Positions 67 to 41,891 of a stretch of DNA of 47,533 bases are shown in pieces; the stretch's first letter is position 1, and the number at the start of each line of letters is the position of its first letter. Made by a program: the position numbers and the translations under genes. Below the pieces are notes generated by a model, which was not told where the DNA came from, ran no database searches, and was given only the letters and a program-made list of their open reading frames with translations. The stretch is from Dimargaris cristalligena (lineage: Eukaryota). Location: contig ML002286.1 of assembly GCA_003614675.1 (NCBI GenBank), forward strand, positions 1 to 47,533, written 5' to 3'.

Positions 67-164
67 ATATATTATCTGACTGGCGCCCGGTACCCCCGGT
101 GTTACAGTATTAACAGTATCAACCGCCACTGGTGTTTGTCTACTACTTGCGTCAAATTTTAAAC

Positions 165-3100
165 AGGCGGGATACAGCTGTTCTGGGTTTTGTGGAGATA
201 GTTTTGCAGCGCTCGACCAAGGGGAGCCTGCAATATAATGTGCGAATACTTAATCGTGTATGATAATTATAAGTGTGAACTTTCAGTTCGGATGCAGTAT
301 TATATTAAGATATAAAGATCCCCGGATGATGTGTGTAAATTCCGGTATATAGTCTGGGTTCTTCTTTGATACCTACTTTCAGTTATATCCCGAAACTGTG
401 GCCTTTCTGATGGGTATTGCCGTATTGCCCTGATTGGGGCTACTCATAGGTTACCATTACCCACCACACGCCCTGTGGAGTATACTCGATATACATGTGG
501 GTACCCAATTAACTTTGTCTGCACGTTAATCCCAGATAGATGAGCGGATATGTTTTTTTTTTGAATGGGTCGCCCTAGCACTGCCATTTATTCAAATAAT
601 AAAAAAAACAGCATGTTTATTATTTGTGTCCACGGATATATCAGCCTACTTTTGGCTAATGGAATACACTAATCGGTAAATAAAGGATAATCATAAAGAT
701 ACGAAGAGAATATAGGCATAAACGAGAAGCAAAATGCCCCTTGGGGCTGTGTTGCTTAATGATCACGGTCGAGGTGCGGTGCCACTCTTTTGACCACTAG
801 CCATATTGGGGGTAGGAAACAAACACATGGTCCATGTCGTCGCCTTCGGGGAACATAAATGATTCGGGAAGACCAAGGGTGGGATACATGGCCGCAAAGT
901 CATCTAATTTCCCAATTACCTCACGCAATGTCCCGTTTGCAATAGCTTTCTTGAGATTATGACACATCTCCACCAGTTTCTCCGGTTCAACGGAACCACA
1001 TTCCACTGGAGTCATCATGTTTTCGATAGCCTCAAACTGATTCATAAACAGAGCCCAGTACGCCCGCTTCACGATATACGTCCACCAATGCGACTGGGGA
1101 AATTGGAGCAGTTCGGCCAGTTCCTGCGCCATCCTAGCGCGGTTGTGAAGCAGCAGGTTGGTTATTAGGTCCGTCCAGAGCGGCAATCCCGTGAAATCAG
1201 TCCATTGGATCACTTCACTAGTATTTGGTGAACGGTAGCGTTCGCAGCCCCGCCCGCTGGCGGGTATTTCGATCTTCTTATTATCCGATGGGGGAGTGAA
1301 ACTGGCCAGCGCCTTGCGAATAAAGTGTAGTACCACTTCGGGACGCCGACCCAAGGCAATGCTCACTAGATACAGGGATTCACGACCTTCCTCCCGGCTC
1401 AGGGTGGACCAAGTATAACCCAAAACCTTCCGCCACTGTTCATCCGACTGGGTATAAAAACGGAAGTCATTTTGGAATGCGAAATGGGACATATGATTGC
1501 CGGGGTCGGCCTGGATTACGGGCCACACTTGCTGGAAATTGTCGTTGTCTAGGAGGTCGTCAATCAGCTCATATAAGAACTCTTCCATCTATAAATGGTA
1601 GTAGAGGTCGGTTATAGCAGGTCCGTAGAGTTGTGTTAGCTTCTAGTACAACATTTCAATATAAAAATACATATTGACGTTGGCCCGCCCCGTAAATATA
1701 TTCGTAAATCTATCTAACAAAGTGCGCTACTTACGTGATTGCTAAATTGACGGCATAAATGTTTTTGGCGCAAACCTATCGCGTCGACCTTTCTAGACCT
1801 TGGGATCGGGATAATTAGGCGTGGCTGCGAGGCCCCGCTATTCGGGTCCGAGTCGGCGGCGTCCACTGATTCCGATTTCACTTCATCGACCGAACTAAGG
1901 GGAGGTACTAGCAACGGCTCCACCGTGGCCGGGTTATCCAGGCGGGATTTTTTCGGTAGAGAACCAATCCCTCCAACACTGCCACTGGCTGTATACATAT
2001 CATTACCATCGGTAGCAGCATTCGCGTCCGCGAATAGTTCCGGCGATTCGGTATCCATATCAATATCATCGTCGTCCAAGTACATGGCCCAATTATGGCG
2101 TTTCCGGCTGAGCCCGGGACCCGTCGGCTCCACGGGGGCTGTTGCTGACCCTACACTGGAGGAATGGGCCGAAGGCGACTCGTTCGGTGACCAACCATTC
2201 AGTTGGGGAAAGGTATCCCAATTCAGGGGGTCTTCTGTATCATTGTCGGACGGGGGTGAGGTAAGGTTTGGGTCACTGAGCAAGGCATCCGGTAGAGTGA
2301 GTTCGGGGGGGTTCCCAAGGTAATGCTCCGTGGGTTGGAGGTTAGCTTCTACTTTGCTGGCCTGTATGACTTGGGCAAGGTGAGTCGACGAGACTAGAAG
2401 GGTAGCATAGGTAAGGATTGTTGAGCGCATATTGGCGGTGGGTTTCGTAAAGAGAAAGGGCACGTGTGGGGGGTTGGATAATGGTGGCCGTGGTCGTCAG
2501 TTGACTGAAATGGTTCGGTAGAAACAGTGGTTTCTTTCTATACGTGTTGATTGTATAGCCAACTGTCTGTCGGTAGGCAATTAGTAGACTGGTCTGGTAA
2601 ATGAAGGAAGTTGGTCCAGAAAGAATGGGCAACGTGGGAAGGACAAATGAAACAATCCGACTTGGAGTAGATTAAACGCCGAGCACACGCGATAATGGCG
2701 AAAATACGGGCTAGAGTAAGTAGTGTATATAGTAGATTATCTGAAGCTACCTGCTATATATGCAGCGTAAACGTAAATAGGGTGTTCGAAATACATCTCC
2801 CTACTTCAAGAGGGGGGGGTTGCCTTTATGTATACCTACTCGCCCCTACAAACGAGCAGAAGCTTTTCCTCGTCGCTGAGAGGGAGCTGTATAAATTATT
2901 GGTAGGTAAGAATACAAGGCCCTTCCCTAATCAAGTACGCCTAATCTTTGGCCCATCGCCCTTTACGAATGTAGGCGGGAGTGGAGGAATGGGCAGGGGC
3001 GGGGTCGTTGGTAGTACAACCCCCTTCTAGCCAGCTTATCGCTCATTGATACATTGGTCGACGTGGCCCATTAGGTAATACAGAGCTAGTGTTCAACAAC

Positions 3101-4384
3101 GGCCGATAAAGACGGGGGAGGTTGAGGATAGGTACTCCATTGGCCGTGGTAGATTATACAATATATATATTGTTTATTGCTATCACGTCTACAACTTCCC
3201 CTTCCCATTTTATATGCCCAGATGGATTTAATATTCGGCTCGATAGAAAACCCCAGTGCGCTATAGTATAGAGAATACTGGGGAGCGGCAGGCTCAGTCC
3301 AGTTATATAATAATAAGAAACGCCGGTTGAGCCAACCTGATTTAATTAACGAAAAATTTACATATTTTTCATGGGGTGTACCGTGTATTCCATTGCATTC
3401 TCAATTTTCTTGGCACATAATTTAGTCCAATTGGTCACTTGCCACTTCTGGCTTTCGGTGACCTTGATACTCAATAAAATACCTCCTCCTATGAATTATT
3501 ATGGTGCTCTAAATCCTACAGAGAGGGGAAGGGGGCTCCCTCCAGCCTGACTACGTGATACTAACCCAACTGCGGCTGTCTTCAGGGTTAAGTGGGATAG
3601 CGCACTATTGGCAAATACTAGTAACAAAGGGAGGACAAAGCCCTTTTACCAACTCACCACTAGGTATTTTTTTGGTAGTGTGGGGGTTTCGGAGGACACG
3701 ATTGATAATGGGGAAATTGTGTAATGTAAAATGTAGTGGAAGTACCACTTATAGTATAGAACGCGTGGTTAGCATGCCCAAAAAGTGAACCCTTATCTCC
3801 CCGACATAATATCTGTCGCCCTTTCTACAGCCACCTATTATAGATCACAGGCCCTGAAGAATGTTAATTAAATAGACGGTGGAGCTGTATATTTAAATTT
3901 ACATGATGGTAGGGGTCAATAACCGTAGGCATTACCCCCCCATTAAAAAGGGCCAGCGACTAGACCCCCCCCCCCCCCGCCGCCTCTTTCACAAGCAGGC
4001 GCGGGCTGGGTCCATTTCGTCAATTCGGGCCGCATATTAACACTCCAGACAAGGCAAGGGAAAATAAGAGCGGGGAAGGGAATACTAGACCCGGCTATTA
4101 GGAATGTGACGATGAATAATGAATTACGGCGGGGCGAAAAAGGTGGAACTGGGGTAGGGTGGGCTGCTACAAAAGCTCTACGTCATCCCAGAATGGACCC
4201 GAAGGTCCGAAAGAGGGCGAATATCCGCCCGAAGCCGAGTTACAAGGGCGGAGAGCCAAGGAAGGGGGTGTAGTTCCTGGCGGCCCTCCCCTCCCACCCA
4301 GGCTTGGGTGATTTCTCCAACGGGGGACGCGGTATCAACTGCCACTGATGTCTCCCTACAGCCTGGGTCAAATCATAGATAAAT
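165..4384. repeat. Tandem segmental duplication, unit 1 (boundaries approximate)
   Basis: Colinear with 4385-8700 over the gene, intron, 3' flank (about 430-540 vs 4555-4670) and about 1.9 kb of upstream non-coding DNA (2430-4350 vs 6753-8640). A boundary motif resembling GGATACAGCTG..CTGGGTTTT recurs near 170, 4385 and 8678. Confidence 0.9.
797..2430 (-). CDS. Orphan secreted protein, copy 1 (495 aa); exons 2430-1735 and 1588-797
   Basis: Start MRSTILTYATLLVSSTHLAQVIQAS looks like a signal peptide and is shared with copy 2. Phase-0 intron 1734-1589 has a GTAAGT donor and TAG acceptor and joins two long ORFs. Intron position and exon 1 length (696 nt) are identical in the paralog. No recognisable domain. 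Confidence 0.85.
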
Positions 4385-5051
4385 GAGATGCAGCTGGCCT
4401 GGGTTTTAAAGAGATGGCAGTGTAACTCTTTGCAGTCCGCCTTTCGGCGCCTGCTCCTCCGGAAGGCCGGGTGATCATTTGACCTCCCAGCAGCTGGTGC
4501 CTATTTGCGGCTACAGTCTGAAATTGTGACATTCCTATCAGATATTGCCACACTGCACTGATTGGGGCTATTCACAAGGTGCCGTTGCTTTATATACACC
4601 CAGTGGGGTATACATGATATAGGCATGGGCGCCCAACCAATATTACCTGCATGTTAACCCCAGATAGATTATCGGTACGTCATTTCCGGTATGTCGTCCC
4701 AGCACTAGAACTCATTAAAATATGTAACACTACGTTTACTATTATGTATAATCATGATCCTGCCATTAGACTGGCTGGGTAAGTCATGGGGACCTAATGA
4801 ACCCATTCATTAATATTTAGGTGTGCTGATAAAACTATTGTGATCCATCAAATGACATTCCTCAGTGCATTAATAAAATAATAATTAACACGTCTGTTAA
4901 TCTATTGTCGGTCGTTAGGATCTACTGATTGAAAAATAAATTGTATTGGGCAGGACATGACGAGAGAAGAGGCATGGATGGAAACGGAATACCCATTGGG
5001 AAAGAGCAGTCTAATCACTACTATGGAGGTACACCGCTACTCCTTTGGCCG

Positions 5052-6753
5052 CTAGCCCCACTCGGGGAAAGAGACAAAAACATAGTCCATGTCGTCGTCA
5101 TCATCGTCATCGTCATCGTCATTATCGTCGTTGTCGTCAAGGTCATCGTCGTTTTCGGGGAAAATAAAATCTCCAGGCAGGCCCAGGATGGGATACAATG
5201 CCGAAAAGTCATCATATTTCTCAAAGACGCCTCCCAATGTCCCGTTGACCATAGCCGCGTTTAGGGTATAGCACAGTTCCACCACTTTTCCCGGTTCAAC
5301 CGATCCACATTCCACCGGGGCCATCATATTCCTGACGGCCGTCTCCTGATCCATAAACAGGGCCCAGTACGCCCGCTGTACCATAAACGTCCACTGATTC
5401 AACTGGGACCATTCTAGCAGATTAAAAATTTCCTGCGCCAGCTCGACGCGGTTATGCAACAGTAGGTTGGTCGCCAGGTCTACCCAGAGGGGTAATTTCC
5501 GGAAGTTGGCCCATGAGAACTCTTCACTCATTGTACTGAGGTGGCAGGCTCGGCTGTTCTGCCCATTGGTGGGTGACTTCTTTACTGTTAGCATCTGTTT
5601 CTGCTCAGGGGTAAAGCCGCCCAACGCCTTGCGAATAAGATGTATGGCGACTTCGGGACGCTCGCCCAAAAGGATAGCCAATAGATTCAGAGATTTGCCA
5701 CTCTCCTGCAGGTTCAGCGTACTCAAAGTATAGCCCGAAACCCGCCGCTGCTGCTTTCCCCACAGGCCGTAAAAACTGATGTCGTTTCGGAACGCTAAAT
5801 AGGACATATAATTACCCGGATCGACTTCGATTATACGCCGCGCTTTCTCAAAATTGACGTTATCCAAGGAGCCATAAATCAGGATTTCCAATAGCCTGGC
5901 CATCTAAAGAAAATTTGAAGTTAATAGGTCAGCCATATCAAGCCCAAAGGGTTTCGTTAGTTTCCAGTACACTCTTTAAATAAAATTATATATATATATA
6001 CGTTGGCCAGCCCCGTAAATCTATTAATATATCAAACTATTAAAGTGTGCCACTTACCTTACTGATAAATAGACTGCAAAAATGCTGTTTGAGCAGGCTC
6101 ATCTCGACCTTCTTGACCTTTGGAACCGGGATAATTTGGTGCGGCTGCGAAGCCTGGCTATTCGAGATTGGGTTGGCAGCATCGACTGGCACTAAATTCT
6201 CGGCATCAATCGAACTAAGGTGAGGAGGGGCTTGTATCGGCTCCACCATGGCCAAGTTATCCTGGCGGGGCTTTTTCGGTAGAGAGCCAATACCTCCCGC
6301 ACTACCGCTGGGGGCATACATATCAGTACCATCACCAGCAGCATCGTCACTCGCCAATAGCTCCTGTAACTCGGTATACACGTTAATGTCGTCATCGTCC
6401 AAGTACCTGGTCCAGCTTTGGCGTTTCCGGTTGAGTGTGGGACCCGTCAGCTCCACAGGGGCTGTTGCTGACCCTACACCGGGATGGTGAGCCGAAGAAG
6501 ACCCGTTGGTCGACCAACCATCCTGTTGGGGCCGGTTATCCCAACCCATGGGGTCTTCTGTATCATTGTCGGATGGGAATGAGGTAAGGTTTAGGTCACT
6601 CAACAAGGCATCCGGTAGAGTGAATTCGGGGAGGTCTCCGAGGTCATGCTCCGTGGATTGGAGGCTGGCTTCTAATTTACTGGCCTGTATGACTTGAGCA
6701 AGATGAGCCGACGAGACTAGAAGGGTAGCGTAGGTAAGGATTGTTGAGCGCAT
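5052..6753 (-). CDS. Orphan secreted protein, copy 2 (515 aa); exons 6753-6058 and 5903-5052
   Basis: Paralog of 797-2430. Phase-0 intron 6057-5904 (GTAAGT...TAG), signal-peptide-like start, and a C-terminal poly-Asp expansion. Confidence 0.85.
5091..5153 (-). repeat. GAY trinucleotide tract encoding poly-Asp in copy 2
   Basis: Encodes NDDDLDDNDDNDDDDDDDDDD; copy 1 has only GDD at this position. Confidence 0.9.
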
Positions 6754-9146
6754 ATTGTTGGTGATGGTTTTTCGGAAGGAGAAATGATACGAGTGGGGGA
6801 TATGCTACTAGCAGTGGTCGTCAATTAACTGAAGCTATTCGTTAGAATCAAAAAAATATTTCTATACGCGTTAAATTTATAACCAACTGCCCGTCGGTAG
6901 GTAATTAGTAGACTGGTCTGGTAGTCAAAGGAAGTGATACCGGAAATATAGGACGGTGTGCGGAGGAGGGAGTAAATGGTCTGGGGTAGAGTATAATAAA
7001 TACTGGGCACACACGATAATGGCGAAAATACAGGCCAAAGTAAGTGATTTATACAGCGAATCATCTAAAATTATCTGTTATACACACAGCATATACATAA
7101 ATAGGGTGTTCGAAATATATTTATATAATTCGCGAGGGGGCAGGGTTGCCTTTATGTATACCTACCCTCCTCTACAACCGAGCTGGCGCTTTCCCTCGTT
7201 GTTGAGAAGGAATTTTATGATTTAACGGCAGGTGTGAGCACAAGACCCTTCCCTAATTAGCCAGACCTAATCTTATGGCCCATCGCCCTTTTTAAAAATG
7301 GGCGCAAGTGGGGGAATGGACAAAGAGGGGGTGGTAGCACAACCCCCTTCTAGATGATTTAATGTTCATATATTCATCGAGCAGTTGGGCCACTAGGCGC
7401 TAGGGGGCTAATGTACAAAAACAACCCAGAATGAAGGGATGGAGGATGGATATTCTATTTGCCGCGGCAGATTATATAATGTATGTATATAACGTATATA
7501 TTCTCGTCACTTTTAAAGTCTCCCCTCCCCGATATATAGACCCAATTTAGTTTAACATTGAGTTCGACAGCAAAGCCTCAATGTACTCTGTAATTTAGCG
7601 CATTGGGGAGAAGCAGGCCCAGTCCACCTACATAATGGCAAGAAACCCCGGCTGAACCAAACTGGCTTGATTGGCGAAAAATGCACACATTTATCGTGGG
7701 GCGTACCGTTGATTTCTTTTAATTCCCAAACTTATTGGCATAATAACCCTTGCCGCCTCTTGTTGCCAGTGGCCTTGATATTCAACAAAATGCCCCCGTC
7801 TGTCAAGTACGATGGTGCCTTAAATCCGATGGAGAGGGGAGGGGGCTCCTCCCCCCACCTTGGCTATGTGACACTAATCCAACTGTGGCTGGCTTCAAGA
7901 TACAGTGGATTAGCGCACCATTGGCTAGCGGTAGTAATGCAAGGAGGACCAAGCCCTTTCACGCACTCCCCACTAGGTTTTTTTCTTTTGGGCGGCGGGG
8001 GTCGACGCCACTCCGTACAGGTTTCTATTGAAAATAGTAAAAGCGTGCGGCGTGTAGGGTAAAATAGGCACTACCCATATTATAGGGCACATGATTGGTA
8101 TGGCCAAAATATGGGCCCTTATATCCCTGATATACAATATCCGTCGCCCTCTCTACACCACCACTTATAGACCACAGGCCCTGAAGAACGGTAACGAAAT
8201 AGCTGGACTGTTTATTTAAATCTACATGGTGGCAGAGGGCAATATCTGTAGGCATTATTCCCCCCTTGGATGAAACCAGCGACCCGACCCGCATTTTTCG
8301 CGAAAAGGGGTGGGCCGAGTCCATTTCGTCAATTCGAGTCGCATATTAAACCTCTGGACCGGGCGGGGAAGGGAGTACTAGACCAGGCTATTAGGAATAT
8401 GGTGATGAATATTGAATTATGGCGGGGCGAATCGGGTAGAAGAAGAATTGGGTGGACTGTTACAAAAGCCCTCTGCCATCCCAAAATGGACCCGAAGTTC
8501 CGAAAGAGGGTAAACTTTCGTCCGAAGCTGAGGTAAAAGGTTGGAGAGCCAAGGGAGGGAGAGGCGAAAACTAGCAAGCCCTTCCCTCCCACCCAAATTT
8601 GGGAGATTTCTCTAACGGGGGAACACGGCACCGGTCCTACTGTTTACTGCTTGAGTCACCTGATAGATAGATGGGTGGGATACGGCTGTGCTGAGTTTCA
8701 GGGAGAGAGTATAGTAAATGTACTATGCTCTATTTAGGGACCGTCTGTTTCCAGCTGGCTTGACCCTAAGGAAGGATTTGGGAGAGGCAATTTCCCTGAG
8801 CCAGCGTTGCCATATACTGTCTGCGGAGTATTTATTTTCCCCCATACACCCCCCAGCAAGACTGCCCCCAGGTGTATTGTATACCCTCGGACACACTCAT
8901 CTCTTTCCCTTCCGTCCTAGTGAATTCCTTTACTATTGTCTTATCCTTTCCTACCAATTAGACCCCAGCCGTCTTCTCTTCTAAAAGCAACGGCTTGTTC
9001 ACCTTGAACTGCCCCCCAGGTTTGCGCTCATCGCCCAACTCCAGTGGTTCTTCCGACCTGCCCCGCATTCTTCCCAACCCGGTTCATACTAAACCCTCCA
9101 CTGCTAATCCGCAGCTCTTAATCCCTCCCCCCATAGATTCGTCATC

Positions 9147-10090
9147 ATGGCTACTGGTAAAGTACCCCCTAAACTATCTCTATATCTACCTGCGTATTTC
9201 TAGAGTGGTCCATGTCTACGGAGTATAACGCATGCCTCCCATATCGGGTGTCTTGTTATGGTGCTTGGACCCAAGTGACCTCGGGACGGGCAGCCCTGAG
9301 ACAACAAAGTCATCCCCCACACTTCCTATATAGCCCTGATACAACCGGCACCCGGCATTTGATAAGATACCCTTCCCCCTTGTATTTGGTCTCGTCCGGG
9401 TAGAGGGTGCGTCGGCCAAGTAGGCCAAGTGCGGGCGGGACCAAAATCCAACTCAGCGGGCCTTGTGCCAGGGTCTATGGCTGAAAAGCATGCACTGTGA
9501 TCGCCAACAAGCCCCACCCTCTATCCCAACAGCCCTTGCCATTCATAGTTTTATCACCGGGAAGGTGGTGATCAAACTGTTCCGGATTCCACTGACCCTA
9601 TTCACCAACTAAACGATGCATTCCCCCCGCTAACCCTCACTTATTTATGTGCGACATTGACTGCATTGGCCCCTATCCTTTAGTTCCACGCAATTTCCGC
9701 CTACTGGAAGAACTCGAGAAAGGCGAAAAGGGCATCGGCGACGGAAGCTGCAGCTACGGTTTAGCCCGCATGGACGATATTACGCTGACCGACTGGAACG
9801 GTACCATTATCGGCCCCCCACACTCCCAACATGAAAACCGTATCTACAGTCTCCTGATCCACTGCGGGGAACATTACCCGGCCCAGCCCCCGCGCGTCCA
9901 ATTCATCTCCCGCATCAATTTGCCCTGTGTAAACCAGGAAAACGGGGTCGTGAATCCGGCACGCCTCGCGTGTTTGCACGGTTGGAAGCGCAACTATACC
10001 ATGGAAACGCTGTTGGTGGAACTCCGTCGTGAAATGGCAGCCCCCAATAACCGGAAATTGACCCAACCCCCCGAAGGCGCTACTTTTTAA
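9147..10090 (+). CDS. MMS2: Ubiquitin-conjugating enzyme variant Mms2/UEV1 (138 aa); exons 9147-9156 and 9684-10090
   Basis: VPRNFRLLEELEKGEKG, WNGTIIGPP and ENRIYSL are Mms2 signatures. A 10-nt first exon ATGGCTACTG, a GT donor, GCTAAC branch near 9629 and TAG at 9681-9683 give MATVPRNFR. The first exon is inferred. Confidence 0.92.
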
Positions 10091-11122: not shown

Positions 11123-13633
11123 TCAGATACGCCGCAAATTAGATAGAGCAGGCAACAATATGTCAAAAGCCTGGTTGAAATACTCTCGGAGCCGATTAGC
11201 CGAGTTCGGGTTCATACCGAAGCCAACAATGTCCGACGCATCGGGAGAGGACGTCGGGTCGCGTAGCGTAACGTCGCTTGCGACGCCCTCATCGGTAGAA
11301 TCCGCCGGAATGAGCGAGTCTTTGGGGTCCTCCGCCCAGCGAATAGAAGGGGTCTTTTGGACCGAACTGGTCGAACAATACTGACAGCAAGACCGGCCCG
11401 GCACTAATTGGTAATGTACCTGAAATGCAACGTCACCGATGCGGATTACATCCAGATGCTTAAGGTACCTTGACGAAGGCCGAGAAGAAGCAGAAGAACG
11501 AACATCTCGGCGGGCGGAGAAGCCTAGAGCCTCCGCTGCTGCTGCTGCCTCTGAATCATCAGAGTCGGACCGATAACGCCGAAGGGGAATATCATTAACC
11601 CACACATCTGTTCGGTAACTGGAGTTCTGGATACAGTAAAACGGCTGGCAATCCGAAGCCGCCGGGGACACCAAAGAGAACCAACCAGTAGGGGGGCGAG
11701 AGCGAAGAGGAGCGGCGTAGGCGTCACCGTCATTGGTATCGGTATTGGTGGGCATTGAGGGGGAGGGCGGACGATGATTACAATGGTGACGGTTATGATT
11801 ATAATTATGATCATGATTATGGGATTCTGGTGATTTATCCCTCCAATCAGGGGACGGTTGGAAGCGGGTGCGGGAGGGGGCGGGTCGATGATGCCGCGAC
11901 CACTCTTCTGACGGCCGATCCCAATTCGATGAACCAGCCTGTTCATCTGGGGACTGCCTATGATGGGACCACGTTCCGGGCGGCTCCTGTGGATCAGAGA
12001 AGTGTTGGGCTGATCTGTTGTTATACCGTTCGGAGGGAACTGGGGGCCGCTCCAATGGTGGAGTTTGAAGTCGAATTCGAATTCGAAATGGAGCTGGAGC
12101 CGGGCCTGGGTCCGGGTATAATGGACCCGCATCTTCCATCTCAACGTCATTAAATTCGAAGACTTCCCCCCCGGTAGGTCCGGAATTCCAGGGGGTGGAA
12201 TCATCGTCGGAAACGCCGGCCATCGAGACGTCGTCGGACTGCATGGCCTCCGTACCCGACACCTGGTTACCCCCGTCCCCACCCCAAGCGGTAAACCCAC
12301 CTCGGCGCGAGGGGGATGAGGCACGCTGGGGTCGGTCGTTGGGTGCCGGCCTATCATCAGAAGGATGCCACCCATTTTTATTATCCCCGGCGTATTGGTC
12401 CGCCGTACCAAACCATTCAGCAGCGGGGGAAGGGTATGGCTGATTAGTAGGGAACTGGAACGAACCATCACCCATCGACCTGGATTGCTGTTGCGCATTA
12501 TGACCCCACGAGTTATTATCACGGCGATTAGGGTAATAAGCGCTGTCGTCCCTGTTCCTATCCCCATCTCGGTCTCGGTCTCGACCTTGGTCTCTGTCCC
12601 TATCATCATCGTCATCCCAACGATTGTGGTTGCGGTCGTGAGCGTGAGCGTGAGAGGATTGTGGTCTCGCGGCCTCTCTTTCTCTCTGGTTCTCTCTCTG
12701 TGACTGGGACCGGCTCAAGGGGAGGTCATTCCAGGCACCTCTATATCCAGACGAGCCCCAGTCGGGCCCCGGTCCGGAATTTCGGTTCGGATGAAATGAC
12801 GACCGATCGGACGGAACGAAATGGGGATGGTGGTTTCGGGGACTTTTACGGGACCCATGGGTGGGTCCGAAGGAATGGTGGTCATGACCGCCATCCCCAT
12901 TAGAACCGAACTCGCCCCAGGAAGGCCGCTGCCGATCCTCCGAGCTATAATCCCGAGATTCCCGTTCATGGGGGGGCGACGAATAATTATGGTTATTAGA
13001 GAAACTACTACGTCGGCTTCGGGTAGGCGTTGGGTAGGGTCGGTGCCGGATGGACTCTGGATACGAGCGGTGGTGGGGATGGCGGGAATGCGGGGCCAAA
13101 GAGGGTTGGTGGTGGTGGTTGGCACTGCTGCCCCACGTTATGAGCGGCAAGTCTCGGATGGCCGCTGATAGGGAAGACGAGGGGGTGGCACAGCCCAACC
13201 CGCCTAGCATACCCGACGAGCTCAGGTGGTGGAAAGGGGCCGCGCCACCGGAGACGGCGTAAGTCGACCACGGCTGGTCCAAAACGTACACTTGACCCGC
13301 CGGGAGCTGCTCTCCCCCCAACTCGACCAGGTGCATCGGGGTGTGCAGACGAGTCGGTAGCCGGGACTGGACCCGTTGGTAGTCAGGAAGAGGGTTGACA
13401 AGGCGGCGGCGGTGGGTTGGGCCAACATAATAGGATTCGTCCAGCCGTTGGAGGTCCAGGGGCAAAAGGTAACTCCTGGACCGGTTCCATATATAATCGC
13501 GCCCGGTGTTGGGGTGCCTTAGTACCTTAACGTCGGGGTTAGAGTAGACGCCATGCGACTCCCACTGTCGGTAGTCCTGGTCCATGGTCGAGGAATAAGA
13601 ATTGTACGAGTCGCCGCGAGGTGAATATGCCAT
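11123..13633 (-). CDS. 836-aa largely disordered protein with degenerate AGGF1-like FHA segments and a CxxC motif
   Basis: Long intronless ORF. VWVNDIPL...YLKHLDVIRIGDVAFQVH...CCQYC resembles the FHA C-terminal strands and the CxxC that follows them in AGGF1. The centre is R/S/D/H/P-rich low-complexity sequence. Confidence 0.7.
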   Translation of the reverse strand: MAYSPRGDSYNSYSSTMDQDYRQWESHGVYSNPDVKVLRHPNTGRDYIWNRSRSYLLPLDLQRLDESYYVGPTHRRRLVNPLPDYQRVQSRLPTRLHTPMHLVELGGEQLPAGQVYVLDQPWSTYAVSGGAAPFHHLSSSGMLGGLGCATPSSSLSAAIRDLPLITWGSSANHHHQPSLAPHSRHPHHRSYPESIRHRPYPTPTRSRRSSFSNNHNYSSPPHERESRDYSSEDRQRPSWGEFGSNGDGGHDHHSFGPTHGSRKSPRNHHPHFVPSDRSSFHPNRNSGPGPDWGSSGYRGAWNDLPLSRSQSQRENQREREAARPQSSHAHAHDRNHNRWDDDDDRDRDQGRDRDRDGDRNRDDSAYYPNRRDNNSWGHNAQQQSRSMGDGSFQFPTNQPYPSPAAEWFGTADQYAGDNKNGWHPSDDRPAPNDRPQRASSPSRRGGFTAWGGDGGNQVSGTEAMQSDDVSMAGVSDDDSTPWNSGPTGGEVFEFNDVEMEDAGPLYPDPGPAPAPFRIRIRLQTPPLERPPVPSERYNNRSAQHFSDPQEPPGTWSHHRQSPDEQAGSSNWDRPSEEWSRHHRPAPSRTRFQPSPDWRDKSPESHNHDHNYNHNRHHCNHRPPSPSMPTNTDTNDGDAYAAPLRSRPPTGWFSLVSPAASDCQPFYCIQNSSYRTDVWVNDIPLRRYRSDSDDSEAAAAAEALGFSARRDVRSSASSRPSSRYLKHLDVIRIGDVAFQVHYQLVPGRSCCQYCSTSSVQKTPSIRWAEDPKDSLIPADSTDEGVASDVTLRDPTSSPDASDIVGFGMNPNSANRLREYFNQAFDILLPALSNLRRI

Positions 13634-13903
13634 GTTGAAAGAAAATAAATTGGAGAAGTTGATACTGGGCAGCCTTTTTTTTGACGGTAAGTTGAAAAAT
13701 GTTAAACATTGGTAATCTTGAGGAAATGTGAGTGGTGGTATTACTCGAGGTTCAATTAGTAGTTATTCCTAAGCAATGAGTATACTTGTCAAGTCCGAAG
13801 ACCTGGGCCAGCCCCCGAGATTAAATACTTTCCCCCTCCCTGGAAGAATCGGGCCATAGGTCACACAGCCCATATACATGGAAATACGAACAAATGAAGG
13901 TAG

Positions 13904-22289: not shown

Positions 22290-22500
22290 GGGCAAGGACG
22301 GACCTCGAGTTTCCAGTCATTCAAACCTCAACACCTCCTTATCCACCCCTGCACACCCTTAGCCCAGATCCCATCTACACTCTACCATCATCCCCGTCAC
22401 TTTCACATACTTGTGTGTTTATAGCGACTACTTTACAGCTTATTAGTACAATTAATCATAATATTCAACCCCAGTTTACTCCAACTCCACCCTATTCACC

Positions 22501-36872: not shown

Positions 36873-39149
36873 ATGGCTTCCAGCACGACCGCCAAGCTTG
36901 CCCAATACCCCGCCAAGGAGCATTGCCGCCAAGTGGCCCAGCGACTTGGGGCCACTCAGGGGGTCATTTACTTGAAGGGATTCAATACCCCTATGAAGGG
37001 CCAGGCGGATACGGTAAGCTGTAATATCCCCCGAACCTCTCCTATTGGTTGTTCGACATGGTAGTCGCTTGTTTTTATCACGCCTACTAAGCCCTGACCT
37101 CGATTATCGAAGGGTCAATATGGTCGAACCCAACTGAAGTCCCGGACTAGTAGGGCTTACATACCCACCGAACGATGACTCGGGTTGGTACCGAGTATTT
37201 CGCTGGTATTGCGCATTATCGTATAATGCCTAAAGACGGGGTTTGGGACTATTAGTAAGCCTGGGGCGGCGTTTTGGCCATATTATACCGTGAGAACCTT
37301 TTTATATCGTCACAACTAGCCAATAACCAATTATATTTAATTATATATATATATATATGTTTGACAATTATTGTAAATGCCACGAATTACACAATCGATT
37401 TATAGGAGTTACCGTTTTACCAAGACCCCAACTTCTATTACCTGGCCGGGGCCGCGGAACCCGGTCTGACGTTCACCTTCGATATTGCCACCAACCGAGG
37501 TACCCTGTGGGTCCCTAAGATGCATGACGATGAGGTCATTTGGGTCGGCGAACAAGGTAGGTTCCCGCTTTGGTTTATATGGTGATCAGCACCACGCACT
37601 ATTCCTCAATTTGCCCTATCCAATTGATTTTTTTTTCGACAGCCCCCCTGAATTAGTTTGACCTCATATTTCTGTTTGCGCTCCGGCTATGTAAATTGAT
37701 GATATCGCCAGAATCGCTTGCTGAACTCCGGGCCAAATACCCCGTGGACGAAGTGGAATTCAGCCACGGTATTACCGACTGTATATCCACCTACAAGTCA
37801 ACCACGATTTTTACCATGGACTACGAAAACGGCCAGGAGCTGGCGGCTTTCCAGTCGGCCGTTGATAAGACGAAACTTAAACCGTAAGTAGCTTTAAATG
37901 TGTCTATTCAATATCATGGGTCGCTCTATTGGCGGATCTTGTGTAAATGGCAAACTGACTACAGTAAAATATCACGGTTTAAAATCGTTACTTAATACCG
38001 ACATTTTTCACCGTACCCCAGACTAGTATTAATTACGTTGGCATTGTATTAATGACCCTCCTATGGCATATTCCTTCTTTAGATGCATCGAGGAATCGCG
38101 CATGTTCAAGACCCCCGAGGAAATCACTATCATGCGCAAGGCCAACGACATTAGTAGCCATGCCCACGCCAATCTCATGCGCTTCGCCGAACCCGGTATG
38201 AACGAGCGCGAACTCTACGCCAAATTTACCTTTGAGTGTGCCCGCCGCGGAGGGATCAGCCAGGCCTACGGCGGTATTGTCGGCCGTGGCACCAATGCGG
38301 CCATCCTCCATTATACCAAGAACGACGCCGATCTCCGGAATCTCCACGACGTAGTGTTGGTCGATGCCGGCTGTGAGTACCAAGGCTACGCCTCGGATAT
38401 CACGCGGGTTTTCCCCGTGGGCAAGAAATTCACCCCCGAGGCCCGGGCCATTTACTCACTCGTGCTGAAGATGCAGAAGGTAAGTTGAACAGGGGAGTAT
38501 AACCCGCGTACCTATTTTTAGTCAATATGTATTATTCTCGGTAATATTATATGTTATCCCTAAATATGGTTGACCCCTATCCTCGCCTTTTTTTTTAAAT
38601 AATAATAATAATAATCATGGTATTAACATTCATATTATTATTTATTTTCGGGTTTTCTTTATTATTGATATGGTCCAGACTGCCCTACACCACATTTCCC
38701 CCGGGGTTCAATGGGAGGATCTTCACCGGGAGGCCATGCAAGTCTGTGCGCAAGGCCTGCTTGAGCTAGGTATTCTGCAGGGCGACCTGGCAGATATCAT
38801 TGCCCACCATATTCCAGCAGTCTTCTTCCCGCACGGACTGGGACACAGTATCGGTTTGGATGTGCATGATGTGGCCGGATATCCCGAGGGCGTAGGTCGC
38901 ATCCCGGAGCCCGGCATCCGTTACCTGCGGATGCGGCGTCGCCTGGAGCCGGGGATGGTCGTGACCGTCGAGCCCGGGTGCTATTTTGTGGGCCCCCTGA
39001 TTGCCGAGGCCCTGCAGAATCCGGACCAGGCCCAGTTCATTAACCAGGAAGTGCTCGACCGCTACATGTCAGTGGGCGGGGTGCGCATCGAAGACAGCGT
39101 GGTCGTGACCAAGTTCGGACACGATAACCTAACGACGGCCCCCAAATAG
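36873..39149 (+). CDS. pepP: Xaa-Pro aminopeptidase/prolidase (M24B); exons 36873-37013, 37406-37556, 37712-37883, 38083-38479, 38679-39149
   Basis: PFYQDPNFYYL, DAGCEYQGYASDITR, PHGLGHSIGLDVHD, TVEPGCYF and GGVRIED motifs. All four GT-AG introns keep frame (443 aa to the TAG; homology continues to the TAA at 39191). Confidence 0.92.
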
Positions 39150-40707
39150 ATCGAAGAGGTGGAGGCTTTGCGCCTGGAATCGGCCGCCTAATGGTAGTAC
39201 CGGTTTTCGAAGTGGCCTTGTGAGAGTGGTCTGTATAGCGCACTTCCCCAGGAGGAGAGAGGGGGGCGCTACCGGTAATGTGATTTGTACGGGGAAATAC
39301 CATTTTTACTCTGGGCAATTATTCGTAATAAATACAATCTATGTTCTTAAGAGCTATGAAGTCTGTCTGGTAAGGCTCATTTAGCTGAGGTTATAATCTA
39401 TTGATGGACCTCGACAATTGATTTTAATGTGGGGTTTTCCGAAGAGGGCTAACTAAGGGGCGGGATAAAGAAATAAGACTATTCTAATTAGAGCTGCTCC
39501 CTGCCCCCCTCTTCTCAGTGGCCTGCCCAACGGAAGCGTGCCATTAGGATAGAGTCACGTGATGTTAATTGTGGTCAGAAGCTGAATCCGTAATAGTTCG
39601 GGTTGGGGATGGATGAGGAGAGATTAAGCGGGATTCCGGAGGTTAATCACTAGGCCGGGTTGTGCCTAATTAAATGGTGCGGAACTAGGCGTATAGATAG
39701 GGAAATGGGGGGAGGGGGTTACATAGTTAAAACGAAGGTCCATCGTTTCTTTGGTCTTGGTGGACCCAGCAAAGTATTATAGGAGGGAGGGGGGCGTTGG
39801 GGGTAAAATGACTGACCACAGGGCCCCATAGCCCCAGCTCATAGAGAAGACACAAGTGGTTGTAGTTGTAGCTGTAGGCTGGTTAGCTACCAACCCACCC
39901 AGCGTAGAGACCACTCACTCGCCTAATCGAAATCAAGTTTGCGTATGTCATTGTAGAGATTCTCCTTTGTTTGTGAGTTGTCCACCCACACCCCCCTTCG
40001 CATCCAGTGGTTTTAGATCCGATTTGTTTTATCCCTTCCCCCCTTTATATTTTATTGCCCAATCTTTATTTCTATCGCCGCGTGCGGAAGTCTCCCTGTT
40101 CTCTTCCCCCATTAAACGTCGTATATCCAGAGGGTAGGTCGCACAAGTCACTTCCCCATTAGCCGCTTCGAATCCGGCCCTCACGGTCTGTAGGGTAGAA
40201 GGGTTATCTGGAGGGCGTTGAATCCCCACTCCCCTTCATTCAAGGTTATAGAGGGCTCCTTTGAATCCAGCTGCCGATTCGCGGAGTCGTTCCTGCTTTT
40301 ACCTTGTCTCTTGGGATGAATCACCAGGTGCCATGTGGGTATGGAGGTCTCCCTGGATTAGCACTGTATAGGCAGTCGTAACCCGTACCAGGCATCTCCA
40401 GGACCGATGATCACCGTCACCTACTCCCCGAATTCTCTTCAACTTTGAGCCAAGGCTTCCGGTGAAGTCAGGCCTAATATCCCTGCGACTCCCTTATTCG
40501 GGGCTGCCGGGGTGGTTTGGGAATGGAACGGCCCTGGGGTAACTTACATGTCAGCCCCGACCAGTCCGGGGTGTCTACACCTATCTAATCGGCTCAGTTG
40601 ATGCTATCTATCTCCCTATATCCTACTAACCCACTGAATGATTTCGTATTCCAAATTATCCTCATGACCTGTAATCCTTCCCGCATCATTTAGAATCATT
40701 TATTATC

Positions 40708-41891
40708 ATGTTTGCCAAGACCCCTCTTGCCGCCACTCTGAAGCGCGTTTCGCAGCTTTCGGCCGGCCGGGCCCTGCCCGCCCGTTTTGTGTCCACTCAG
40801 GCCGCACCCATCGCCGCCAAGGCCCCGTGGGGTAGTTCCCTGGCCACCGCGGCCGCTTTTGCCGCCGGTGGTACTGCTCTGACCATGTACTACTTGGAGC
40901 AGCACACCTCCCACGCCAACATGGCCGACGAGGGTCTGCACCCCCCGGCCTACCCCTGGGCTCACCGCGGTCTCTTCGACACCTTCGACCACGCCAGTAT
41001 CCGTCGTGGTTACCAGGTGTACAAGGAGGTCTGCGCCTCGTGCCACTCCCTGGACCGCATTGCCTTCCGTAACTTGGTGGGTGTCAGTCACACCGCCGAT
41101 GAGGCCAAGACCCTGTGCGAAGAATTCGAGTTCCAGGACGGTCCCGACGAAAAGGGCGAAATGTTCACCCGGCCCGGTAAACTGTCCGATTACATGCCCG
41201 CCCCCTACCCCAACGAGGAGGCCTCGCGTGCCGCTAACGCCGGTGCCTACCCCCCGGATCTCAGTCTGATCGTCAAGGGCCGTCACGGTGGTGCCGACTA
41301 CATTTACGCCCTGCTGACCGGGTACCACGAAGCCCCGGCCGGTGTGGAAGTGCGGGAGGGACTGAACTACAACCCCTACTTCCCGGGTGGTGCCATTGCC
41401 ATGGCCCGTGTGCTCTTTGACGAGCTCGTCGAATACGAAGATGGTAGGTTGGCATTTTATCCATCATTATGTAGCACTGCCTATTACTAGTGCCAATTGC
41501 TCTATGGTTTGATTATATTATTGTTTTTAAAAGAGATAGCCACGTCTCTGGACCATATTGAGATGACGCCCCGAGGAGTTGCAACTGTGTTATCATTCAA
41601 ATCATTATTTCTAACGATTCACTATTACCTACACGTTGTCATGATTTATGGTGACTTTGCTGGGGCCTCCCTACAGGTACTCCCGCCACCTCTAGCCAGA
41701 TGGCCAAGGACGTGACCACTTTCCTGGCCTGGGCCTCCGAGCCCGAGCTGGAAGAGCGCAAGCGCACTGGTGCCAAGGCCCTGATCCTGTTCGCCACCCT
41801 GTTCGGTTTCTCGCTTTGGCTGAAGCGCTTCAAGTTTGCCTCGCTTAAGTCCCGCAAGCTAGTATTCCGTCCCCCTCCCAAGTCCCACTAA
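40708..41891 (+). CDS. CYT1: Mitochondrial cytochrome c1 (316 aa); exons 40708-41443 and 41677-41891
   Basis: Bipartite presequence, DHASIRRGYQVYKEVCASCHSL heme motif, PPDLSL, YNPYFPGGAIAM and a C-terminal TM anchor. Phase-1 intron GTAGGT...CAG with a CTAAC branch. Confidence 0.97.

Follow-up and report, generated by a model that had tools for sequence, protein, structure and literature searches.

Tandemly Duplicated Orphan Genes of the Mycoparasite Dimargaris cristalligena Encode Probable Secretory-Pathway Proteins

Introduction

Candidate secreted effector proteins (CSEPs) of haustorial biotrophs such as rusts and powdery mildews, which form a class and not a sequence family, are the closest known kind to the proteins described here. 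We analyzed contig ML002286.1 of the Dimargaris cristalligena assembly GCA_003614675.1 (positions 1 to 47,533 of the forward strand; these 47,533 nucleotides are referred to as the window), which carries two similarly built genes, gene A (2430..797) and gene B (6753..5052), each with two exons on the minus strand. Like CSEPs, their products have a signal-peptide-like start and no known domain, come from one lineage, arose by tandem duplication in a haustorial producer, and combine relaxed constraint (a ratio of nonsynonymous to synonymous substitution rates, dN/dS, of 0.46) with an N-terminus that is more conserved than the rest. In contrast to CSEPs, to which they have no relation in sequence or fold, they are larger (495–515 aa), contain few cysteines, come from a parasite whose host is a fungus, belong to a family of three, and are known here from their genes alone. 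Judged from their sequence features, they form a new lineage-specific family of probable secretory-pathway proteins, for which the label "candidate effector" is reasonable.

Two other described systems are relevant. Effectors that carry a signal peptide together with a nuclear localization signal (NLS), such as the Crinklers of oomycetes and certain effectors of rusts and smuts, have a similar layout, namely a secretion signal followed by short basic clusters. The D. cristalligena proteins differ from them in having no LxLFLAK, RxLR, or other familiar uptake motif and an NLS match that is not conserved in position, and their nuclear import is hypothetical. Pro-proteins processed by Kex2/kexin, such as the alpha-factor precursor and the Kex2-processed repeat proteins, are alike in combining a signal peptide, a spacer, a KR site (LSRKR, LNRKR, and SLKRNR in the three proteins described below), and an acidic run. 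The present proteins differ from these precursors in that they contain a single site, lack repeated peptide units, and, in A and B, depart from the usual aliphatic residue at P4; their cleavage is putative.

D. cristalligena is described as a haustorial parasite of Mucorales in the accessible text of PMC9866270, and the fungal host proposed in an initial annotation of this gene pair is plausible for an organism with this mode of life. According to the same accessible text, by Reynolds et al. (PMC9866270), CBM18 occurs almost only in mycoparasitic Dimargaritales. The accessible parts of PMC9866270 and PMC6784888 treat the molecular side of parasitism as a matter of carbohydrate-active enzymes, proteases, and secondary metabolites. 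The strings "secret", "effector", and "SignalP" have no occurrence in the main text of PMC6784888 as accessible, and "SignalP" has none in the accessible text of PMC9866270. A literature search on secreted proteins or effectors of Dimargaris returned no study of its effectors. A duplicated, fast-evolving, and probably secreted family with no relatives found outside D. cristalligena is a sensible first candidate for work on fungus-fungus biotrophy. On present evidence it also joins the orphan families of candidate secreted proteins that are common in biotrophic fungi, and its genes are already catalogued as hypothetical proteins.

Results and Discussion

Gene Structure and Range of the Family

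Gene A consists of exon 1 (1735..2430; 232 codons, corresponding to residues 1–232 of protein P0001), a phase 0 intron of 146 nt (1589..1734) with a GTAAGT donor, a CTAAC branch-like site, and a TAG acceptor, and exon 2 (797..1588; 263 codons plus stop), all on the minus strand. Excision of the intron yields exactly the public 495 aa model. Exon 1 encodes the signal-peptide-like start (codons 1–24, nt 2359–2430) and an acidic Pro/Ser-rich region with the clusters RKR (2098–2106), KKSR, and RSRK, and exon 2 encodes a Trp/Leu-rich domain, all-helical in the AlphaFold model, that ends in an acidic-hydrophobic tail. Gene B, also on the minus strand, follows the same plan, with exon 1 at 6058..6753 (232 codons, 66% identity to exon 1 of gene A), an intron of 154 nt at 5904..6057 whose position and phase are those of the gene A intron, and exon 2 at 5052..5903 (283 codons plus stop, 49% identity to exon 2 of gene A). 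Before its tail, gene B encodes a poly-Asp/Asn tract (5092–5150, minus strand), which corresponds to a hexamer microsatellite, TCGTCA, of 9.8 copies. The spliced products are letter-identical to two GenBank "hypothetical proteins" of D. cristalligena, P0001 (gene A, 495 aa) and P0005 (gene B, 515 aa). The initial annotation had described this tandem pair accurately: every feature was found where it had been placed, as were all of the quoted motif strings (SRKRH/NRKRQ, LPKKSRL/LPKKPRQ, PRSRKV/PKVKKV, and DDMDHVFVSYPQYG/DDMDYVFVSFPEWG).

A third paralog, P0004 (495 aa), is encoded on another D. cristalligena contig, and P0003 is a truncated model of the same paralog. Over exon 1, P0004 shares 28–32% identity with A and B (tblastn). 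When a HMMER profile of the exon 2 domain was run over 1.84 billion representative proteins, two matches were obtained, P0001 and P0003, both of which belong to this family. Word-indexed searches of 5.8 billion clusters, made with exon 2 in longer proteins, with the whole of P0001, and with its residues 1–232, returned A and B only. This was also the result for residues 1–232 at E values up to 10; P0004, whose cluster is represented by the truncated model, was missed. Scans of metagenome contigs for the family matched 428 and 304 pattern stretches, none of which was confirmed by tblastn. The family thus has three paralogs and was not found outside D. cristalligena; it is not proven to be species-specific, a term that means here "not found elsewhere", as the presence of other Dimargaritales proteomes (Dispira, Tieghemiomyces, and other species of Dimargaris) in the searched databases is unconfirmed. 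The earlier description of the pair as an orphan, undescribed family agrees with these results, all three paralogs being from D. cristalligena, with no match elsewhere and a public record that reads "hypothetical proteins".

The models of two independent D. cristalligena assemblies differ just in the lengths of their Asp/Asn tracts and in one substitution in the third paralog (360 residues compared). In gene B, the model of the second assembly, P0002, is 10 residues shorter than P0005 within the Asp/Asn tract, and the Asp run of the third paralog shows a similar difference in length between the two assemblies. Contamination by host DNA was considered unlikely: no relative was found outside D. 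cristalligena, hence none in Mucorales, and the genes occur in both assemblies.

The N-Terminus and Entry into the Secretory Pathway

Residues 1–24 read MRSTILTYATLLVSS(T/A)HLAQVIQA. Twenty of these 24 residues are invariant across the three paralogs, and the next ~200 residues are strongly divergent. Because this conservation stands in paralogs that otherwise share 28–32% identity over exon 1, the N-terminus is functional. Its features agree with the earlier suggestion of a signal-peptide-like start, as the segment is built of the three parts expected in a cleavable signal peptide. A positively charged n-region, which in signal peptides precedes an uncharged hydrophobic core of about 7–15 residues, is provided by Arg at position 2 and is followed by such a core, the sequence being uncharged from residue 3 to His17. 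The best Kyte-Doolittle windows in the three paralogs reached 1.9 over 8 residues (ILTYATLL) and 1.6–2.05 over 11 residues. Signal-peptide cleavage follows a rule of small residues at −3 and −1 within about 15–30 residues of the start, and such residues define candidate cleavage sites after residues 14, 15, 16, and 24 (the last between VIQA and S or N) in all three paralogs. No other 19-residue Kyte-Doolittle window exceeded 1.33, and by the usual cut-off neither a membrane segment nor the second hydrophobic segment of a glycosylphosphatidylinositol (GPI) anchor was seen. None of the three paralogs ends in KDEL or HDEL or in a type 1 peroxisomal targeting signal. A secreted-type neighbor with CBM18 chitin-binding domains begins in a similar style (MVKVIPILVTLTAVLATLTMA). 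On the strength of these features, entry of the proteins into the secretory pathway appears likely.

Taking the parts of the protein together, we propose a secreted pre-pro-protein composed of a signal peptide, an acidic spacer, a possible kexin cut, and a helical domain released outside the parasite, a proposal that we hold to have about an even chance of being correct. The nascent chain would enter the endoplasmic reticulum (ER) co-translationally through its cleavable signal peptide, which would likely be cut after residue 15 or 16 or after VIQA at residue 24. The acidic, Pro/Ser/Thr-rich spacer of ~200 aa, probably disordered and glycosylated, would then pass through the Golgi, where a kexin-type protease of the late Golgi might cut at the dibasic site (RKR, RKR, and KRNR, with a W and an Asp run after each). 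The novel all-helical domain of ~260 aa with its acidic-hydrophobic end would finally be released outside the parasite, plausibly at the interface between haustorium and host, given that the fungus parasitizes Mucorales by means of haustoria; there it may have a role in parasitism.

Several observations weigh against this proposal. The hydrophobic core is short, moderately hydrophobic, and broken by Thr, Tyr, and Ser. The proteins are long (495–515 aa) and Cys-poor (4 Cys, 3 of them invariant), unlike many small Cys-rich fungal secreted proteins. N-glycosylation sequons are present in the spacers of A and B (3 each), and none are present in the third paralog. The kexin site consists of a dibasic motif alone, with flanking residues that differ between paralogs, and nuclear proteins, too, commonly combine acidic disordered sequence with basic clusters. 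In addition, constraint on the protein sequence is weak, because the total coding divergence between A and B (p = 0.274) equals the divergence of the intergenic DNA (identity 0.729).

Part of these observations could be accommodated if the protein remained inside the parasite cell, for instance in the nucleus or on chromatin, where acidic tracts and an NLS would be in place; its hydrophobic start would then be a membrane anchor, a weak organelle-targeting peptide, or neutral. The moderate hydrophobic core (Kyte-Doolittle 1.9 over 8 residues) and the low cysteine content are consistent with such a protein, as are the poly-Asp tracts and the short basic clusters within acidic disordered sequence, a combination typical of nuclear proteins; moreover, the Joint Genome Institute (JGI) model of the third paralog, P0003, begins at an internal Met and is without the N-terminus. 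However, the near-invariance of the first 24 residues described above argues that the N-terminus is functional and not neutral. The single Arg, the uncharged core of 10–12 residues, and the small residues that follow fit a cleaved signal better than a 20-residue anchor, and residues 1–27, with just 2 Lys/Arg, are a poor fit to an Arg-rich amphipathic presequence. We therefore consider an intracellular location unlikely.

A protein that enters the secretory pathway could also be retained in it, in the ER, the Golgi, the vacuole, or the cell wall of the parasite, where poly-Asp tracts might serve, for example, in low-affinity cation binding. The signal-peptide-like start is as expected for such a resident protein, and the long Asp runs of B and P0004, whose lengths differ between assemblies, would suit this function. 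In contrast, paralog A has almost no poly-Asp tract, there is no KDEL or HDEL ending, and a second hydrophobic segment that could serve as a membrane or GPI anchor is missing. Lumenal proteins with housekeeping roles can normally be recognized in more than one species, whereas no relatives of A, B, and P0004 were found outside D. cristalligena. Retention in the pathway of the parasite is thus rather improbable, and release outside the parasite, as proposed above, is the reading that we prefer.

The Acidic Spacer, Its Basic Clusters, and Nuclear Import

In gene A, the 208 residues from 25 to 232 include 32 D+E, 15 K+R, 24 P, and 37 S+T. Within this spacer, four islands are conserved in the three paralogs, namely LLSD, GPxLxRxR..W..L.DDD, SGSxGGIGxLP, and IIPxP...V. 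Three basic clusters had been noted earlier as conserved between the copies. All three are indeed present in A and B and are not expected by chance: with a cluster defined as at least 3 basic residues in 5, as many as three arose in 0.05% of 20,000 shuffles for A and in 0.035% for B. P0004 keeps two of them, a number reached by 6.9% of its shuffles; cluster 2 (LPKKSRL/LPKKPRQ) lies in a stretch that is deleted there, and conservation of the full set is therefore confined to A and B.

A similar division applies to the claim that these clusters are NLS patterns. Each paralog contains one match to the monopartite pattern K-K/R-x-K/R (KKSR at 160 in A, KKPR at 160 in B, and KRNR at 132 in P0004), and at least one such match arises by chance in 3–5% of shuffles. 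The match is not conserved in position: it falls on cluster 2 in A and B but on cluster 1 in P0004, where A and B have RKR, which is outside the consensus. The bipartite NLS pattern was found in none of the three paralogs. Membership in the class of nuclear effectors with a signal peptide plus an NLS would call for an NLS conserved in position, and the NLS match of this family is not. The feature that is kept in all three proteins is the KR pair of cluster 1 (110–111 in A and B, 132–133 in P0004), aligned within the block GPxLxRxR..W..L.DDD. For a protein of the secretory pathway, this conserved pair would be explained by kexin cleavage no less well than by nuclear import.

The host-nucleus model of the initial annotation, spelled out for this organism, is a secreted protein that would enter the cell of the Mucorales host and then its nucleus by means of importin-alpha NLSs, where the helical domain and the acidic tail would alter transcription or chromatin. 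Such a course would be consistent with the signal-peptide-like start, with the non-random basic clusters of A and B, two of which are kept in the third paralog, with the one K-K/R-x-K/R match in each paralog, and with an orphan, tandemly duplicated, fast-evolving family in a haustorial biotroph. It is opposed by the deletion in P0004 of the stretch with the KKSR/KKPR match of A and B, in place of which P0004 has KRNR at cluster 1, and by the missing bipartite pattern. The clusters have just 3–4 residues and stand in a strongly acidic context. The motifs known from host-translocated effectors, expected within about 100 residues after the signal peptide, are RxLR with dEER, the LxLFLAK of Crinklers, Y/F/WxC, and CHxC; a regular-expression scan for them was negative in all three paralogs. 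Nor is an aromatic-acidic activation motif retained in the tail of all three paralogs, the W being confined to B and P0004 having DGARH at its end, and the idea that the tail is an activation domain was drawn from composition alone. Our search of the literature returned no report of Dimargaris effectors that are translocated. The third paralog weakens the case for targeting of the host nucleus, which now seems quite improbable from the sequences, and we regard the complete course of events, from uptake by the host to altered transcription, as a poor prospect. By the same measure it would be a long shot to call the three paralogs the first recognizable host-translocated effector family of a zygomycete (Zoopagomycota) mycoparasite, with basic clusters that direct the protein to the nucleus and a helical domain and D-D-M-x-x-hydrophobic-F-V-S tail that engage a nuclear target of the host.

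The Exon 2 Domain and Its Tail

The exon 2 domain of gene A contains 8 W in 263 residues. Among the five members scanned against Pfam, only DUF6988 was obtained, in one member, with an E value of 0.01 and a score of 16 bits, short of the cut-off of 27; at E values up to 10, the five members had no Pfam repeat family among their listed matches. A comparison of the domain with the sequences of the Protein Data Bank (PDB) gave a best E value of 1.2. AlphaFold returned an all-helical model of stacked hairpins with low confidence (mean predicted local distance difference test score, pLDDT, of 42.4 with 2 sequences and 51.7 with 5 sequences), in which only residues ~130–240 were moderately confident (pLDDT 55–85). 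When this low-confidence model was compared with the PDB by Foldseek, no match was found at E ≤ 0.001, the best matches (E ≥ 1.3) being generic helical repeats. VIA-align gave a best Z of 6.2 over 52–160 residues to TPR, PPR, TOG, and HEAT-like hairpins, which is below the noise level of the tool for helical models. A comparison of residues 1–100 with residues 125–245 by hhalign (probability 0.2%) revealed no internal repeat. In the Protein Atlas, residues 233–495 of P0001 had no usable feature match (Atlas model pLDDT 0.35, structural matches with TM ≤ 0.36), and residues 213–495 of P0004 had a single match with a score of 0.76, below lead level.

The low-confidence model is similar to helical repeat folds (TPR, PPR, HEAT, and TOG) in being an all-helical stack of hairpins; the matches to such folds stay within background (Foldseek E ≥ 1.3, VIA-align Z ≤ 6.2), and neither a Pfam repeat family nor an internal repeat was found in the domain. 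No fold was assigned to exon 2, as helical-repeat matches occurred only at noise level. A match of exon 2 to a conserved housekeeping domain had been named beforehand as a finding that would speak against an effector family; Pfam, the PDB sequences, and the structure comparison all returned no such domain.

At the C-terminus, the conserved core of the tail is D-D-M-x-x-hydrophobic-F-V-S-(Y/F), and the downstream aromatic residues and the long Asp run are not conserved: B alone has the W, P0004 terminates in DGARH, and paralog A is almost devoid of the poly-Asp tract. Two known types of motif were considered for the tail and rejected. An Atg8-interacting motif with preceding acidic residues is present in the tail of B only, and the Trp of an Arp2/3-type acidic-Trp tail likewise occurs in B only.

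Maintenance of the Reading Frames

Orphan frames might be annotation artefacts or decaying, functionless duplicates. Besides the orphan status, the proportion of nonsynonymous differences (pN) of 0.23, which is close to the noncoding divergence of 0.27, and the low AlphaFold confidence (mean pLDDT of 42 and 52) would be in keeping with this explanation. However, when gene A was evolved neutrally in simulation at p = 0.274, 0 of 20,000 copies kept an open frame (mean of 12.3 stops), and here both frames of ~500 codons are open, as is that of the third paralog. By the method of Nei and Gojobori, dN/dS between A and B was 0.46 overall (0.47 in exon 1 and 0.43 in exon 2) and less than 0.65 in every 60-codon window, and pN was lower than the proportion of synonymous differences (pS) in all sliding windows. 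Of the 19 gap runs in the alignment of upstream intergenic DNA, only 3 have a length divisible by three, whereas both coding frames remain open through every length difference. The position and phase of the intron are common to A and B, with an intron identity of 0.733, and the sequences agree in the two independent assemblies, apart from the tract lengths and the one substitution mentioned above. These results indicate that the genes are real and that the proteins are maintained for an open frame under weak constraint; that the frames are without function is very improbable.

The synonymous rate of exon 1 (dS = 0.43) is about half that of exon 2 (0.81) and is lowest in the first 60 codons (0.23). 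The lower value in exon 1 might be attributed to gene conversion at the 5′ ends of both copies.

The Duplication Unit and Neighboring Genes

The gene pair arose through a 4.3 kb tandem duplication. When the two halves were compared by blastn, a 4.3 kb unit was found to be repeated directly, head to tail, noncoding DNA included, with 71.6% identity over 3552 columns. Unit 1 (116..4327) contains gene A with its flanking noncoding DNA, and unit 2 (4332..8622), which directly adjoins it, contains gene B; both units, to which no strand is assigned, were delimited by blastn and by repeat families (D1–D10 for unit 1). The aligned blastn pairs of unit 1 and unit 2 are 116–199/4332–4415, 392–547/4520–4675, 781–842/5036–5097, and 837–4327/5146–8622. 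Neither blastn of 701–4400 against 8701–47533 nor a tblastn search of the whole window with P0001 and P0004 detected a further copy of the unit. Rfam families, tRNAs, and tandem repeats were sought in the window or in the repeat unit, and nothing was found besides the poly-Asp hexamer array at 5092–5150. A short element common to both units, GGCCCATCGCCCTTT, shows no dispersal over the window, where it has 4 matches and 1.9 are expected.

The CBM18 neighbor mentioned above (22462–23187, plus strand) is a secreted-type protein with a clear signal-peptide-like start, four chitin-binding domains (PF00187, E value of 1.7e-28), and Pro-Asn and Gly-Thr linkers. Closer to the pair, an open reading frame (ORF) of 879 codons (11126–13762, minus strand) has no Pfam match and is very rich in His, Arg, Ser, Pro, Asp, and Asn, with runs such as RDRDQGRDRDRDGDRNRD; its product is probably largely disordered.

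On the plus strand, ~3.5 kb between 30500 and 34000 are strongly pyrimidine-rich (C+T of 0.63–0.72), with a GC skew down to −0.38 and an AT skew of −0.36. ATG is scarce in this stretch, with 3 occurrences in 31001–33000 against 35 of CAT. The stretch lies directly upstream of two ORFs with matches to the Velvet factor (PF11754, E values of 4.5e-16 and 4.5e-36), the velvet gene being located at ~34232–35181. The remaining neighbors, all on the plus strand, are of an ordinary housekeeping kind and include a ubiquitin-conjugating enzyme fragment (9596–10087), cytochrome c1 (40675–41487), and an M24 metallopeptidase (38033–39146), which is spread over two ORFs and therefore contains an intron.

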